A DNA stretch of 64,000 nt from an uncultured Ruminococcus sp. Its GTDB lineage: Bacteria; Bacillota; Clostridia; Oscillospirales; Ruminococcaceae. Below are positions 21,787-49,573 of the stretch, one piece after another. The stretch is taken from assembly GCA_900545345.1 (NCBI GenBank), contig UQYQ01000001.1, positions 34,426 to 98,425 of the forward strand. Reading direction: 5' to 3'. The notes beneath the pieces were generated by a model, which ran no database searches, was not told the origin of the DNA, and saw only the letters and a list, made by a program, of their open reading frames with translations. Made by a program: the position numbers and the translations under genes. Position 1 is the stretch's first letter. Each line of letters begins with the position of its first letter.

Positions 21787-21878
21787 TTAGTCATATCCTC
21801 CGCCTTTATGGTTCGAGGATATCTTAATTTTATAATAACAATATGTCAGCTTAATTCAATGGAAGGATGCGATTTGTG

Positions 21879-23168
21879 ATGAAAATAAAAAAGTTTATAT
21901 GCTTATTTACAACAGGCATTATATTTGTAAGTTTATTTTTAAGTGTTCCAACAGTATCATCAACAGTACGTCGCGAAGAAGAACCTAAAATAAAAATCGG
22001 TAATTTTTCATACACATTTAAAGAAAATGTACAATATGGCTCAGTTAAAATTCCGTATTCTGCGACAGTTGTTGAATTTCCCGATATTCAAAAAGTTGAA
22101 TTACCGTCAAAGGTTACTTACAACGGAAATGAATATACAGTAACTGATATAAGGATATACGGCGGATATTATGTTGTCAAAAACAATTCATATATTTCTA
22201 AATGTAAGTATCCGAATATTGAAGAGATTGTATTACCTGATACAATATATAACATAACTGACTTAGGTTATTTTTCAAATCTTAAAAAAATTAATATACC
22301 GAAAAACACAGTGCTGCGCAGAAGTAAAAAATATTTTACTGAAAATTATTACTATGATTTTGAATTTACCGGAGGGCTTAGCGGCTGCCCTAATCTAAAA
22401 TTATCTTTAGACCCAGAAAACCCATATTACTGCTATAAAAACGATATGCTTTTGTCAAAGGACGGAAAGACACTATTTATATCTTTTAATTCTCAAAAAA
22501 ACATCGAAATTCCTGATGGTGTAGAAACATTACTCTACAGGGGAGGATACGGATTTGAATCAGTAGAAAATGTTAAGTTTCCTAATACACTTAAATACAT
22601 TGGTGACTATGTCTTCTCCGATTCAAATCTAACAAAAGTCACACTCCCAAACAGTGTTAAACAAATAAAAGACAGTGCGTTTTCAAATTCCGGCCTTAAA
22701 ACAATTAAATTCGGAAAGAATTTAACTCGTCTTGACATATCAGCATTCAGCAAATGCAAAAATCTAAAGGATGTAACAATCCCTAAAAAACTCAAAACGA
22801 TTGGTTATTATGCATTTGAAAATTGCAAAAACTTAAAAAGTGTAAAAATTCTTTCAAAAAACATTGTTATCCAAGGAGAAGCCTTTGCAGGTTGCCGTAA
22901 ATTAAAAATAGTTAAAATAAACGGTGCTGAAAAAATAAATGAAGAAGCATTTCGGGGATGTAAAAAGCTTTCTAAGGTAATAATTAACAACAAAAGAAAG
23001 GCTCCTAAAATCATTAACACAGCCTTTAGAAACACCAAAAAAGGCATAAAATTTTATGTAAAGAATAAGAAAGTAGCCAAGAGCTTAAAGAAACAGCTAA
23101 AAGGCAGCGGTGTGAGAAACGCAAAAATTTTGATAGGCAAAAAAGTTGTGTATAAGAATGTGAAGTAA
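21879..23168 (+). CDS. Secreted leucine-rich-repeat (BspA-type) surface protein with conserved K-rich C-terminal tail; paralog group A
   Basis: Signal peptide; repeated (I/V)xIPxxVxxIGxxAFxxCxxLxxV LRR units; C-terminus KFYVKNKKVAKSLKKQLKGSGVRNAKILIGKKVVYKNVK shared with 24480, 45780, 47273 and 48271 genes; N-terminal half closely paralogous to 48271 gene. Confidence 0.7.
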   Translation: MKIKKFICLFTTGIIFVSLFLSVPTVSSTVRREEEPKIKIGNFSYTFKENVQYGSVKIPYSATVVEFPDIQKVELPSKVTYNGNEYTVTDIRIYGGYYVVKNNSYISKCKYPNIEEIVLPDTIYNITDLGYFSNLKKINIPKNTVLRRSKKYFTENYYYDFEFTGGLSGCPNLKLSLDPENPYYCYKNDMLLSKDGKTLFISFNSQKNIEIPDGVETLLYRGGYGFESVENVKFPNTLKYIGDYVFSDSNLTKVTLPNSVKQIKDSAFSNSGLKTIKFGKNLTRLDISAFSKCKNLKDVTIPKKLKTIGYYAFENCKNLKSVKILSKNIVIQGEAFAGCRKLKIVKINGAEKINEEAFRGCKKLSKVIINNKRKAPKIINTAFRNTKKGIKFYVKNKKVAKSLKKQLKGSGVRNAKILIGKKVVYKNVK

Positions 23169-23268
23169 TTTTAAGCGGAACTAAATTGTTCCGCTTTTTT
23201 ATTTTAATTTTTTTTAAAATTAATGAGACTTTTTGCGTTTTGAAACGCTTAATAAATAGAAGGGAGGG
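23168..23268 (+). repeat. Copy A of ~95-bp intergenic repeat (terminator hairpin GCGGAAC-TAAATT-GTTCCGC + T-run + conserved AATTAGTGAGACTTTTTG..GAAACGCTTAATAAACAG)
   Basis: Near-identical copies at 43427-43516, 46950-47045, 48107-48210. Confidence 0.8.
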
Positions 23269-23429
23269 ATAAAGTCTAACATATTCTATATAATGTAATA
23301 TATGCACAAATATAAACATCTTTATTTGTGTGTGTATACAAATGTTTTTTATTTCCTTTACTTTACATTTAGTAAATGTTATAATATGGATGGAAATACT
23401 CCGTAATAACCATGAAAGGAAATATTAAC

Positions 23430-24458
23430 ATGAAACTCAGAAAAATTCTATGCTTATCACTTGCAGCAGCAGTCACATTCACTTCAGCAATTAATTTGAC
23501 AGTATCGGCTGAAATCGGCGGGGAGAATGCTAACGAAAATCAAAGCTTTGGCTGTATCATTCTGGACAAAATGAGGAATGAAAAATCTGATAACGACAAT
23601 TCGGGGATTTCTCCGCTTTGGACGGGTGATACACACGATGAAATCATCATGGGAGGCGATAGTAATTACATACCGGCCGCATATTCGGATTTAGTTTATA
23701 AAATTTGCAAATGGTGTGATGATGAAACCAAAATACCTTTTGCAACATGCTTGCACGGAAACAGAAACTATGTAGCAACATTAAAATTTTTATGGACTTA
23801 TGCACAAAAGATAAGTGTTAACAGCGGTGAAGCTTATCATGTACAATCTTCAAATGCTAAATCTCAATGTTTAGCAATGTTTGATAAACAAAAGTTTGAT
23901 AATTTAAATTCTTACGACAAACAAGATTATGTTCATTTGGTAAAACTAGCTGACACTACAGAATATGTTATTAATACATATGGAAAATTTAAAAACGGTG
24001 AGGGTAGAAAATATCTTATAGTCGGACTTATAATGCATTTTTTAGGCGATGTTACAGCACATAGGACTATAGTACCAAAATTTATGATTGATAGGGCAAC
24101 TGATTCTAATTATACAAATAGTATTAACAGATTCAATAAAAAAGATTTCTCAAATGCTGAATGGAACAAACTTATAACAGAATATAATAACGGTTCATTG
24201 GATTTTTCGTTAATACAAAATTTATTAATTAAAAGAAGCGGTGAAACAGACGAAGATTTAAATAAACGAAAAGTAAGTATTAGAAAAAGATATGAAGACA
24301 ATCCAAGTGTAGTTCCAAATAGAATATTACAATCTGAAACAATGGTTGATTATTTTTTCCACTATTTTAACAATGGATTTGATGACTCAATTTTCGACTC
24401 ATCATATTCGAACATAAACTTAATCTACTTAAATAACAAATACAAACGTCAAATATAG
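23430..24458 (+). CDS. Secreted protein with phospholipase-C/P1-nuclease-like zinc-binding domain (putative)
   Basis: Signal peptide MKLRKILCLSLAAAVTFTSA; motifs LWTGDTHDE (Trp/His N-terminal ligand region), LHGNRNYVATLKFLW, and HFLGDVTAHR resembling the H(Y/F)(L/I)GD..QP.H zinc motif of zinc-dependent PLC/P1 nuclease; paralogous to C-terminal half of 43621 gene. Confidence 0.55.
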   Translation: MKLRKILCLSLAAAVTFTSAINLTVSAEIGGENANENQSFGCIILDKMRNEKSDNDNSGISPLWTGDTHDEIIMGGDSNYIPAAYSDLVYKICKWCDDETKIPFATCLHGNRNYVATLKFLWTYAQKISVNSGEAYHVQSSNAKSQCLAMFDKQKFDNLNSYDKQDYVHLVKLADTTEYVINTYGKFKNGEGRKYLIVGLIMHFLGDVTAHRTIVPKFMIDRATDSNYTNSINRFNKKDFSNAEWNKLITEYNNGSLDFSLIQNLLIKRSGETDEDLNKRKVSIRKRYEDNPSVVPNRILQSETMVDYFFHYFNNGFDDSIFDSSYSNINLIYLNNKYKRQI

Positions 24459-24479
24459 AATCGAAAGGAATGTAACGAT

Positions 24480-48106: not shown

Positions 48107-48210
48107 TATCAAAGCGGAACTAAATTGTTCCGCTTTTTTATTTTAATTTTCTTTTAAATTAGTGAGACTTTTTGTGGTTTGAAACGCTTAATAAACAGAA
48201 GGGAGGAAAA
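48107..48210 (+). repeat. Copy D of the intergenic repeat
   Basis: tatcaaagcggaactaaattgttccgcttttttattttaattttcttttaaattagtgagactttttgtggtttgaaacgcttaataaacagaagggagg. Confidence 0.8.
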
Positions 48211-48270
48211 TTGGGGTAAAAATATAAAAATCACAAAAAACAAAAACTTATTATGAAAGGATAATTTATC

Positions 48271-49527
48271 ATGAAAAAAACTAAAAAATTACTTTGTTTA
48301 CTTACAACAGCTATTTTATCTGTCAGCTCATTAGCAGGTACTGTGACAACAGTATCAGGATATTATGATGCTGCCGCATACTATAATGATGACAGAACCT
48401 ACGACGAAGAACCTAAAATCAAGGTCGGTGAATTCACCTACAAATTTAAACGCAATATCAAATACGGCGATTTAGAAATTCCTTATTCAGCTACCGTTGT
48501 AGAAGTTCCGAACATCAAAACAGTTGAAATACCTAAAACAGTTACATATGACAATATCGAATTTATGGTAACAGATTTAGATTTATACGGTGATTATACT
48601 TTGGGAAGTAAATATTCAACTGAAAACAGATTTACAAATGTTGAAGAAATGATTTTACCTGAAACTATTTATAACATAACCGAATTCGCTTGTTTCCCTT
48701 CACTTAAAAAGATTAATATACCAAAAAACACACTGATAGATAGAGTCAACTATAACTATTTATATTATCAGAATGAGTCTGCATATTATCCTTTAGGTCA
48801 GATATTCAGAGACTGCCCTAATCTGAAATTGTCTTTAGACCCTGATAACCCTTACTACATCTATAAAAATGACCTGCTGTTTTCAAAAGACGGTAAAGCA
48901 CTTTTGATGTCGTTCACCTCAGGCAGTGTAACAATCCCTGCAGGAGTGGAAAAAGTACATGACTATGGCGGATACGGTTTTTCAAATATCACCGAAATAC
49001 AATTCCCGAACACCGTAACCGAATTAATTGACAGTCAAATTTTTATAAACTCTAAACTGACAAGAATCACACTCTCTGACAATTTGTTCAGCATACCGGA
49101 CAAATGCTTCAGCAATTCTGATATCAAATCTTTAAAAGTTGGAAAAAGAACAAAATTTATATGCTGGAAAGCATTTGCATTTTGCAGCAGCCTAAAAAAA
49201 ATAAAAATCTCTGCAAAGAAAATTGAAATAGGTGAGTATTCATTTGCAAAATGCACAAGTCTGAAAACTGTTACAATAAACGAGGCTGAAACTATTGACA
49301 AAGGAGCATTTTACAAATGCAAAAAACTTTCGAAAGTATTTATAAACAACAAAAAGAAAGCTCCTGAAATAAATAAAAACGCTTTTAAGGGTACTAAGAA
49401 AAGCATAAAATTCTGTGTTAAAAATAAGCGTGTTGCCAAGAGCCTGAAAAAACAGCTAAAAGGCAGCGGAGTAAGAAACGCCAGAATTATAGTTAAAGAC
49501 AAGGTTGTTTATAAGAATGTAAAGTAA
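48271..49527 (+). CDS. Secreted LRR surface protein with conserved K-rich tail; close paralog of the 21879 gene
   Basis: 418 aa; N-terminal EEPKIKVGEFTYKFK...IPYSATVVEVP and DCPNLKLSLDPDNPYYIYKNDLLFSKDGKALLMSF blocks match the 21879 gene; conserved tail. Confidence 0.7.
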   Translation: MKKTKKLLCLLTTAILSVSSLAGTVTTVSGYYDAAAYYNDDRTYDEEPKIKVGEFTYKFKRNIKYGDLEIPYSATVVEVPNIKTVEIPKTVTYDNIEFMVTDLDLYGDYTLGSKYSTENRFTNVEEMILPETIYNITEFACFPSLKKINIPKNTLIDRVNYNYLYYQNESAYYPLGQIFRDCPNLKLSLDPDNPYYIYKNDLLFSKDGKALLMSFTSGSVTIPAGVEKVHDYGGYGFSNITEIQFPNTVTELIDSQIFINSKLTRITLSDNLFSIPDKCFSNSDIKSLKVGKRTKFICWKAFAFCSSLKKIKISAKKIEIGEYSFAKCTSLKTVTINEAETIDKGAFYKCKKLSKVFINNKKKAPEINKNAFKGTKKSIKFCVKNKRVAKSLKKQLKGSGVRNARIIVKDKVVYKNVK

Positions 49528-49539
49528 TAAAATTTTAGA

Positions 49540-49573
49540 CGGATAAACCTGTTGGTCTATCCGTCTTTTTTAA
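49540..49573 (+). terminator. Terminator ending the LRR gene array
   Basis: agacggataaacctgttggtctatccgtctttttt. Confidence 0.7.

Follow-up and report, generated by a model that had tools for sequence, protein, structure and literature searches.

The 64,000-nucleotide window analysed here (contig UQYQ01000001.1 of assembly GCA_900545345.1, positions 34,426 to 98,425 of the forward strand), from an uncultured Ruminococcus sp., contains two loci of what we take to be a lineage-specific family of secreted, BspA-type leucine-rich repeat (LRR) proteins of the LRR_5 class in an uncultured, spore-forming gut Clostridium. We propose that these loci form a modular LRR array that is reshaped by ordinary homologous recombination at the joints between its units, and assign this explanation as a whole a probability of about 0.7. 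The LRR and protease repertoire differs between close strains in the assemblies compared, which we attribute to recombination at the joints; the mechanism and its rate are read from sequence comparison. The outcome appears to be an evolutionary turnover of the repertoire, not a programmed switch.

Organisation of the repeated units

The five LRR proteins, A to E, which a preliminary description of the sequence had recognised as secreted and BspA-type, are encoded by co-directional open reading frames (ORFs) with lysine-rich, hydrophobic N-terminal leaders. The window ORFs other than those at 58096-62159 were scanned with Pfam, and all five proteins match LRR_5 (PF13306) above the cutoff of 27.7 bits (A 163.6, B 52.1, C 121.0, D 41.4, and E 94.2), with additional matches to LRR_8, LRR_4 and LRR_EndoS. 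The LRR genes and their partners, all on the plus strand, are as follows:

21879-23168 (+): LRR gene A, in an ORF that opens at 21867; the start of the orthologs, MKIKKF, corresponds to 21879; LRR_5 E=2.5e-48
22998-23165 (+): tail of A, 56 codons, comprising the last LRR strand, a strand, a helix and a beta-hairpin cap; net charge +19
23412-24458 (+): predicted secreted alpha-helical protein, labelled phospholipase C (PLC)-like, 348 aa; 21-nt gap to B
24480-25451 (+): LRR gene B, LRR_5; tail at 25257-25448; its own, different terminator at 25455-25498
43621-45768 (+): predicted secreted subtilase (Peptidase_S8) fused to a PLC-like helical domain, directly before C
45780-46949 (+): LRR gene C, LRR_5; 11 nt past the S8 gene and in the same predicted operon; C-type tail at 46779-46946
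47061-47249 (+): remnant of a PLC-like 3′ end, a 62-codon ORF in the C-D spacer; 24337-24380 matches 47131-47174
47273-48106 (+): LRR gene D, LRR_5; tail at 47942-48103
48271-49527 (+): LRR gene E, LRR_5; E-specific tail at 49357-49524; an old paralog of A

All five proteins end in a common C-terminal tail of about 48-56 aa, (K)APKI..AF.NTKKGIKFYVKNKKVAKSLKKQLKGSGVRNAKILIGKKVVYKNVK, with blastn E-values between the 3′ ends of 1e-14 to 1e-97. The preliminary description had also noted a conserved element downstream of three of the genes. It is present, at about 90 bp, after A, C and D, but the fourth of its copies stands behind aspS, which shows that an LRR 3′ end is not required next to it:

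23168-23260 (+): element copy 1, after A; hairpin at 23173-23196 with a T-run; motif at 23225-23249
43426-43515 (+): element copy 2, after aspS and before the S8 gene; hairpin at 43431-43454; motif at 43481-43505
46955-47046 (+): element copy 3, after C; hairpin at 46955-46978; degenerate motif at 47011-47035
48112-48198 (+): element copy 4, after D; hairpin at 48112-48135; motif at 48164-48188

The hairpin AAGCGGAACTAAATTGTTCCGCTT is identical at 24 of 24 positions in the four copies. It is made up of AAGCGGAAC-TAAATT-GTTCCGCTT plus T6 and lies 4-23 nt past the stop codons of A, C, D and aspS. Because of this identity, the T-run and the distance from the stop, the hairpin is classed as an intrinsic (rho-independent) terminator, which its G+C-rich stem also fits. 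E has a terminator of its own at about 49537-49566, the stem of which was placed on the opposite strand by the scan.

The second half of the element carries a motif—GAGACTTTTTG-N3-TTT-N2-AACGCT in copy 1—which in its general form, GTGAGACTTTTTG-N3-TTT-N2-AACGCT, precedes genes for secreted S8, helical-domain and LRR proteins in several genomes (outside the window in L008, L009, L018, L019 and L054-L067). It occurs ten times in 727 kb of sequence (the window and related loci) versus 0-2 times in shuffled sequences, and all ten copies are on the coding strand, with a gene for a protein with a predicted signal peptide 58-237 nt downstream. In distant metagenome-assembled genomes (MAGs) the motif is kept where the hairpin differs or is missing. 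A scan of metagenomes added 14 further motif loci, before S8, PLC-like and LRR-tail genes, with two unexplained exceptions: those in L065, 380 nt upstream of a pyrG-like gene, and in L063 have no LRR, S8 or helical-domain neighbour, and may reflect a wider regulon or chance or decayed copies.

We infer from its position and conservation that the motif is the promoter of the next unit, probably one served by an alternative sigma factor of the extracytoplasmic function (ECF) type. Its layout is TGAGACTTTTT-N16-CGCT, that is, TGAGAC followed by T5, with CGCT 16 nt past GAGAC. The Firmicute ECF consensus is tGAAACnTTTt with CGTA/CGTC, and promoters of Bacillus subtilis SigW, SigX, SigM and SigV similarly have a −35 region, a homopolymeric T-tract, and a −10 region starting with CG about 16 nt away (PMC5758882). 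The T-tract and the 16-nt spacing of the motif fit this pattern, whereas GAGAC stands for GAAAC (core GAC for AAC) and CGCT for CGTA/CGTC (CGC for CGT).

The element is thus best described as the terminator of one unit joined to the putative promoter of the next, and not as the 3′ flank of a cassette. An Rfam search returned no match to it, and its interpretation as an RNA or a mobile element was rejected in favour of a sequence motif; the copies show no covariation that would preserve a second inverted repeat, GCGTTTTGAAACGC. Writing P for the promoter-like motif, the predicted transcription units of the window are A (without the motif), P-[PLC-like-B], P-[S8-C], P-[remnant]-D and P-E. The repeated unit consists of a terminator hairpin, a promoter-like motif, an optional helical-domain gene—alone, fused to S8, or decayed to a remnant—and an LRR gene with a tail of about 165 nt. 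The tail and the element together form a direct repeat of about 250 nt between units, and it is this repeat that we refer to as the joint.

Differences between strains and assemblies

Each of the loci was compared with its relatives in short-read genome and metagenome assemblies, and as far as these show the loci are not static. At locus 1, four relatives (L001, L042, L043 and L045) have the order ppa, A′, xylB, tal, with A orthologs of 79-86% aa identity and a B-type terminator after A′. Relative to these the window has a surplus of 2.3 kb—the element, the PLC-like gene and B—bounded by the tails of A and B.

The body and the tail of A have different histories. Measured as the proportion of differing synonymous sites (pS), A differs from L042 by 0.25 in the body and 0.69 in the tail, and from L001 by 0.36 and 0.76; with L043 the values are 0.34 and 0.20. 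Fisher tests on codon identity in the A body versus the tail gave p=1e-4 (A against L042) and p=9e-4. Body and tail are concordant for the pairs L001-L045 and L042-L044. The tail of A belongs to a clade designated 'clade I', unlike those of its nearest body orthologs, and because the two histories disagree we conclude that a tail from the clade of B, D and L043 has taken its place. The tail of B was considered as the original tail of the A slot, but this is not supported, as it is only marginally nearer to the tails of L001, L042, L044 and L045 (nucleotide identity 0.77-0.79 vs 0.73-0.76).

Breakpoints in shared sequence are also seen between closer relatives. Two assemblies from different samples, L002 (metaSPAdes) and L003 (MEGAHIT), are 98.4% identical to the window over 47969-52412 and have a different LRR body in slot D; the breakpoint, near 47969, is inside the tail, and their slot-D tail is a mosaic that is B-like over its first ~100 nt. 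The L068 contig, recovered in three samples, is 98.8% identical to the window from 23167 onwards and has a non-LRR gene to the left of the A stop codon. In L046-L053, 94% identity extends only from the promoter-like motif (43472) to the stop of C (46948), and the flanks are unrelated. A gene with thrombospondin-type-3-like DxDxD repeats directly follows the C ortholog in L046-L053.

The largest difference is in a strain represented by a 487-kb scaffold (L072 and L071), which is 98.9% identical to the window on the left side and 99.8% on the right, element copy 2 being the left edge of the 99.8% identity to L071. Between aspS and the S8-C-D-E block this strain holds 12,663 bp more than the window, comprising two S8 genes, six LRR genes and two PLC-like remnants; every surplus unit is followed by the identical hairpin and motif, and the motif precedes nine units in the array. 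At the 90 sites that separate S8 copies 1 and 3 of the scaffold, the window agrees with copy 1 up to 43939 and with copy 3 from 44031. Relative to the large-array strain, the S8 gene of the window thus reads as an S8a/S8c chimera with a single switch, either from one unequal crossover between units or from an assembler path switch.

Near-identical segments are found inside otherwise diverged paralogs. In L071, the bodies of gene D and its paralog x1 cannot be aligned, but identity is 100% over the stretch between about −165 and +70 nt of the stop codon (141 of 141 positions in the tail). The pairs x0/x2 and x4/C of the large array have the same step, with 97-100% identity of tail plus hairpin, and in L058, from another sample, two adjacent LRR genes have tails that are 97% and bodies that are 30% identical (aa). 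Across these two separate assemblies the paralog bodies beside such tracts share 30-49% aa identity.

Taken together, copy number and gene identity vary between close strains with breakpoints in shared sequence, which is the behaviour of a recombining tandem family, and the near-identical segments within diverged paralogs have the form of gene-conversion tracts. The preliminary description had proposed the 3′ block as a site of recombination or gene conversion, and the proposal is supported, mostly by data from outside the window.

Divergence of the tail and selection on it

Identity among the tails of the window is uneven. The preliminary description had put it at about 90% over the last 70 or so codons of all copies; this figure applies to A, B and D over the last ~48 codons (88-90%), and not to C (75-82%) or E (69-77%). 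The blastn identities are similar (A/B/D 86-90%, C 76-82%, E 72-78%). In a codon alignment of the last 48 codons the proportion of differing nonsynonymous sites is 0.02-0.22, and pS is 0.35-0.42 among A, B and D, 0.52 for C-D, and 0.63-0.80 for the remaining pairs with C or E. Body pS among the LRR genes of the window is 0.61-0.73, which is the range of saturation. Tail ratios of nonsynonymous to synonymous substitution rates (dN/dS) are about 0.03-0.3, and synonymous saturation is nearly reached in E and C.

For a synonymous baseline, 51 tails from 20 genomes were compared by the share of identical residues that use the same codon. Between genomes this share is 0.50 (standard deviation 0.11, 99th percentile 0.76). 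The A, B and D tails of the window reach 0.78-0.79 among themselves, C against these three 0.62-0.68, and E 0.44-0.56. Since synonymous identity is high among A, B and D, and C and E are at or near synonymous saturation, only A, B and D share a moderately younger tail. Within the window, tail conservation is mostly protein-level purifying selection on the folded cap.

The question then is whether purifying selection is the whole account, with the tail as a structural cap, the element as terminator and promoter, the loci static and no exchange. The saturation of the E tail and largely of the C tail agrees with this, as does the finding that subtype tails track orthologs across genomes: C-type and E-type tails are inherited along with the gene, E orthologs retain an E-type tail, and C-type tails are also present in the distant genomes L004, L021 and L030. 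The tail is, moreover, a confidently folded cap found only on LRR_5 proteins. We nevertheless consider this account highly improbable, as the tails of A, B and D lie above the 99th percentile of the baseline, identity between paralogs with unalignable bodies reaches 100% with the non-coding hairpin included, several strain-level breakpoints fall at joints, and the differing phylogenies of the A tail and body already contradict it.

A and E were described as recently duplicated. They are paralogs, with 62% nucleotide identity over the body, but at a pS of 0.63 their synonymous sites are saturated; the duplication is therefore old, and a recent one was rejected.

Mode of change

Selection on the folded cap preserves the tail, and the terminator and putative promoter functions would preserve the spacer, so that a direct repeat is maintained between units on which general homologous recombination could act. 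Gene conversion at the joints would homogenise the tails of otherwise unrelated paralogs, and unequal crossover or exchange with incoming DNA would add, delete or replace whole units. Exact matches between the joints of the window are 27-68 nt long, and such lengths should suffice for RecA-type recombination.

It is conceivable that the variants are assembly artefacts—mis-joins or collapses of the ~250-nt joint and the 1.4-kb S8 repeat in loci that are alike in all strains. Many public contigs (among L073-L077, L001 and L044) end within ~50-300 nt past aspS or an LRR tail, metagenome assemblers collapse near-identical repeats, and the S8a/S8c switch is indistinguishable from a change of assembler path. 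MAG-based gene counts for the family are probably underestimates. Against this, the slot-D junction of L002 and L003 was recovered by different assemblers from different samples and that of L068 in three samples, and four independent contigs with an A ortholog have the same ppa-A-xylB order. The clade-II tails co-vary with their bodies (L001-L045, L042-L044), so these are not chimeras, and non-identical tails (91-96%) are kept within one scaffold. The independent recovery of the same junctions and the co-variation of clade-II tails with bodies argue that not all of the variation is artefact, and we regard this explanation as unlikely.

A second alternative is programmed antigenic or phase variation, in which silent donors recombine at high frequency into an expression site in the manner of pilE/pilS or vlsE; the preliminary description had suggested a cassette system of this kind. 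The common 3′ homology block beside diverse 5′ regions, the tandem layout, the sharp-edged conversion tracts and the strain-variable repertoire would all be expected of it. However, neither silent donors, an expression site nor inverted repeats beyond the terminators were found in the window, and no dedicated recombinase among its scanned ORFs. Every LRR copy is of full length and has a start codon and a predicted signal peptide (including the ten LRR genes of L072/L071, which are complete ORFs with start and leader); none of them is a silent or truncated donor, and truncation is confined to the PLC-like remnants. Separate promoter motifs precede D, E and both operons, so that there is no single expression site, and no strong 5′ homology block bounds a cassette swap. 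No recombinase, reverse transcriptase or invertase is encoded among the Pfam-scanned ORFs of the window and no invertible repeats were detected; a tail synonymous divergence (dS) of ~0.5 or more in this genome argues against frequent exchange. Programmed variation is thus very unlikely. An invertible promoter, a diversity-generating retroelement, a transposon and an integrase were also sought among the scanned ORFs without success, and the inverted-repeat scan returned terminator hairpins only.

Several observations weigh against recombination at the joints as we propose it. Short-read assembly can collapse, skip or mis-join repeats of this kind: the 100% identical tails could in part be bulge collapse, the 12.7-kb 'deletion' of the window could have arisen where the assembler changed paths within the 1.4-kb S8 repeat, and the assembly is ambiguous after aspS, where several contigs stop. 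The tails of the window have not been recently homogenised (dS ~0.5 or more), so exchange within this genome would be infrequent. The motif departs from the ECF consensus at GAC and CGC, there is no Sigma70_r2/r4 or anti-sigma gene among the scanned ORFs that might be its cognate, and its role as a promoter is deduced from position and conservation, just as secretion and surface location of the LRR proteins are predicted from their N-terminal sequences.

Fold, distribution and charge of the tail

The AlphaFold model of A has a mean predicted local distance difference test score (pLDDT) of 88 and a predicted template modelling score of 0.83. Foldseek matched it with probability 1.0 to 4fs7, 4cp6, 4gt6, 4h09 and 6mlx (E 3e-10 to 2e-5), with template modelling scores of only 0.35-0.5, as expected for solenoids that differ in curvature; the closest solved folds are gut-bacterial LRR_5 proteins, PcpA and TpLRR. 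Residues 370-433 have pLDDT >=96 and consist of the last LRR strands followed by strand 395-398 (IKFYV), helix 401-410 (KKVAKSLKKQ) and a beta-hairpin at 419-432. In the model, then, the tail caps the C-terminal end of the LRR solenoid.

A profile of the tail matches solved LRR_5 proteins only over the initial ~40 positions, where it describes an ordinary repeat. For the final ~45 residues Pfam gave no match and PDB sequences only a weak one, to the end of the PcpA LRR domain, and the tail was accordingly ruled out as a generic LRR_5 cap in sequence. A search of the 48-aa tail core against 1.84 billion representative sequences returned 72 clusters, in which it is essentially always at the extreme C-terminus; LRR_5 is present on 52 of 53 full-length tail-bearing representatives, and a domain of another class on none. 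Because it is confined to the C-terminus of LRR_5 proteins, the tail is regarded as an integral, family-specific cap, and its interpretation as a portable anchor module was rejected.

A further alternative concerns the function of the tail. It may primarily be a surface-retention module, a polycation that binds teichoic acids or the membrane and is conserved for that reason, with recombination incidental. Over 56 residues, the tails of A, B, D and E carry a net charge of +16 to +19, the tail is always at the extreme C-terminus, and Pfam detected no LPXTG, SLH, LysM, choline-binding, GW or other anchor domain in these proteins, nor an internalin N-cap or IR domain. C-type tails, however, carry only +4, the LRR bodies are basic too (isoelectric points 8.3-9.7), and the tail behaves as an integral cap that was not seen on non-LRR proteins. 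We hold this reading to be possible, though with the odds against it; a role in electrostatic retention on the cell envelope would be compatible with recombination at the joints.

Helical-domain partners

The PLC-like protein at 23412-24458 is probably co-transcribed with B, and is paralogous to the C-terminal half of the S8 protein (28% identity, E=2e-16). The helical domain, encoded by 23412-24458 and, within the S8 gene, by 44920-45765, has only 11 homologs; alone or fused to S8, it is always paired with an LRR gene. Invariant residues are H115, H209, G212, D213, H217 and R218. The protein has no match in Pfam, NCBIfam or PDB sequences, and a fold search with a model of the domain, itself with a pLDDT of only 66, returned nothing at E<0.4.

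The preliminary description had placed C, D, E and a gene fragment in an array behind an S8-phospholipase C gene. The array is as described and the fragment is the 62-codon PLC-like remnant in the C-D spacer. The enzymatic label was not upheld: zinc-dependent phospholipase C (PF00882) scores 22.5 bits against a cutoff of 26.8 in the S8 protein and has no match in the 23412 protein. Similar remnants of 60-83 codons lie between LRR genes of L054, L058, L060 and L071. Because of the remnant in the C-D spacer, we suggest that the ancestral unit consisted of the terminator/promoter, a helical-domain gene and an LRR gene.

Family membership and relation to known systems

The family is represented by 38 loci, spread over about 18 MAGs from uncultured gut Clostridia, with several copies per genome; it is small (the 72 clusters are defined at 50% identity) and so far confined to such MAGs. 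Among GTDB representatives, relatives of A have at most 54% aa identity and are labelled uncultured Clostridia, Ruminococcus sp. or Acutalibacteraceae MAGs. Literature searches returned no account of this LRR family in gut Clostridia.

Large multigene families of BspA-like LRR_5 proteins are known (PMC2843621). Examples include Tannerella BspA, Treponema TpLRR/LrrA, pneumococcal PcpA and LRR surface proteins of Bacteroides and Faecalibacterium, with expansions in Trichomonas and Entamoeba. The proteins described here have in common with these PF13306, the fold, and a secreted or surface location (here predicted) in mucosal organisms, and differ in the lysine-rich strand-helix-hairpin of the last ~45 residues.

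The closest known behaviour, by analogy, is that of the Listeria internalin clusters (inlGC2DE and inlGHE), although the proteins of the window are not internalins. In both cases genes for secreted or surface LRR proteins with conserved terminal regions stand in tandem and in one direction, and the content of the array differs from strain to strain, in Listeria through homologous recombination between paralogs; inlH, for example, joins the 5′ end of inlC2 to the 3′ end of inlD (PMC3977354). Internalins have a 22-residue LRR with a cap and IR domain, and LPXTG or GW anchors, whereas the repeats here are of the BspA-type LRR_5 class and none of these anchors was found by Pfam. The repeated joint of the present array includes the terminator/promoter spacer, and its helical-domain and S8 partners are without an internalin counterpart.

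Neisseria pilE/pilS, Borrelia vlsE and Treponema tprK resemble the array in having homology blocks beside variable segments, sharp conversion tracts, and predicted surface products that vary between isolates. Unlike those systems, the array was found to have no silent or truncated donors, no single expression locus and, in the sequence scanned, no dedicated cis or trans factors; conservation is one-sided (3′), and it is whole genes or units that move, infrequently on an evolutionary scale.

Other features of the window

The rest of the window is ordinary chromosome and includes mur genes, a penicillin-binding protein gene, mraZ/W, malQ, glgP, RmuC, ppa, xylB, tal, spoIVB, spo0A, hisS with a T-box, aspS, nadE and rnf. 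Features outside the two LRR loci are:

18784-20130 (−): RmuC-family (DNA recombination) gene, 1.7 kb upstream of locus 1
20474-21208: conserved ORF, ~204-244 aa, upstream of ppa; no Pfam match, NCBIfam 19.5 bits against a cutoff of 306
27958-29799, 30705-31643, 32037-33686 and 33941-34567 (all −): second group of predicted secreted proteins, one with a pAdhesive_15 domain and three without a Pfam match
30174-30520 (−): four tRNA genes
31852-31924 (+): one tRNA gene
39509-39721: T-box leader (Rfam RF00230, 134.9 bits), upstream of hisS (39763-41073)
41105-41608: conserved ORF, 167 aa, between hisS and aspS; no Pfam or NCBIfam match

The ORFs at 41105-41608 and 20474-21208 are syntenic in all relatives examined. 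The RmuC gene is also syntenic in the relatives regardless of the content of locus 1, and its proximity to that locus is therefore probably coincidental.

Implications

Among the surface proteins predicted for gut anaerobes, those with BspA-type LRRs are some of the most common, and the diversification of their repertoire in commensal Firmicutes is largely undescribed. In the loci described here the unit of change is directly legible: strains with 99-99.8% identity elsewhere differ by the exchange, loss and multiplication of whole transcription units, each bounded by the cap-coding tail and the terminator/promoter spacer. A bolder interpretation, which we offer as a speculation and consider improbable, is that the joint is a built-in recombination module for rapid turnover, within host-associated populations of a gut commensal Clostridium, of a co-regulated repertoire of secreted LRR binders with their protease and helical-domain partners, under one dedicated alternative sigma factor. 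If true, this would constitute contingency-locus-like diversity of the surface and secretome in a non-pathogenic Firmicute.

If recombination at the joints is confirmed, it would serve as a warning that short-read MAGs systematically break or collapse these loci. The promoter motif would become a candidate regulon marker linking LRR, S8-protease and helical-domain genes, and the array would provide a concrete, testable model of how strains of uncultured Clostridia come to differ in the proteins that bind host or substrate.

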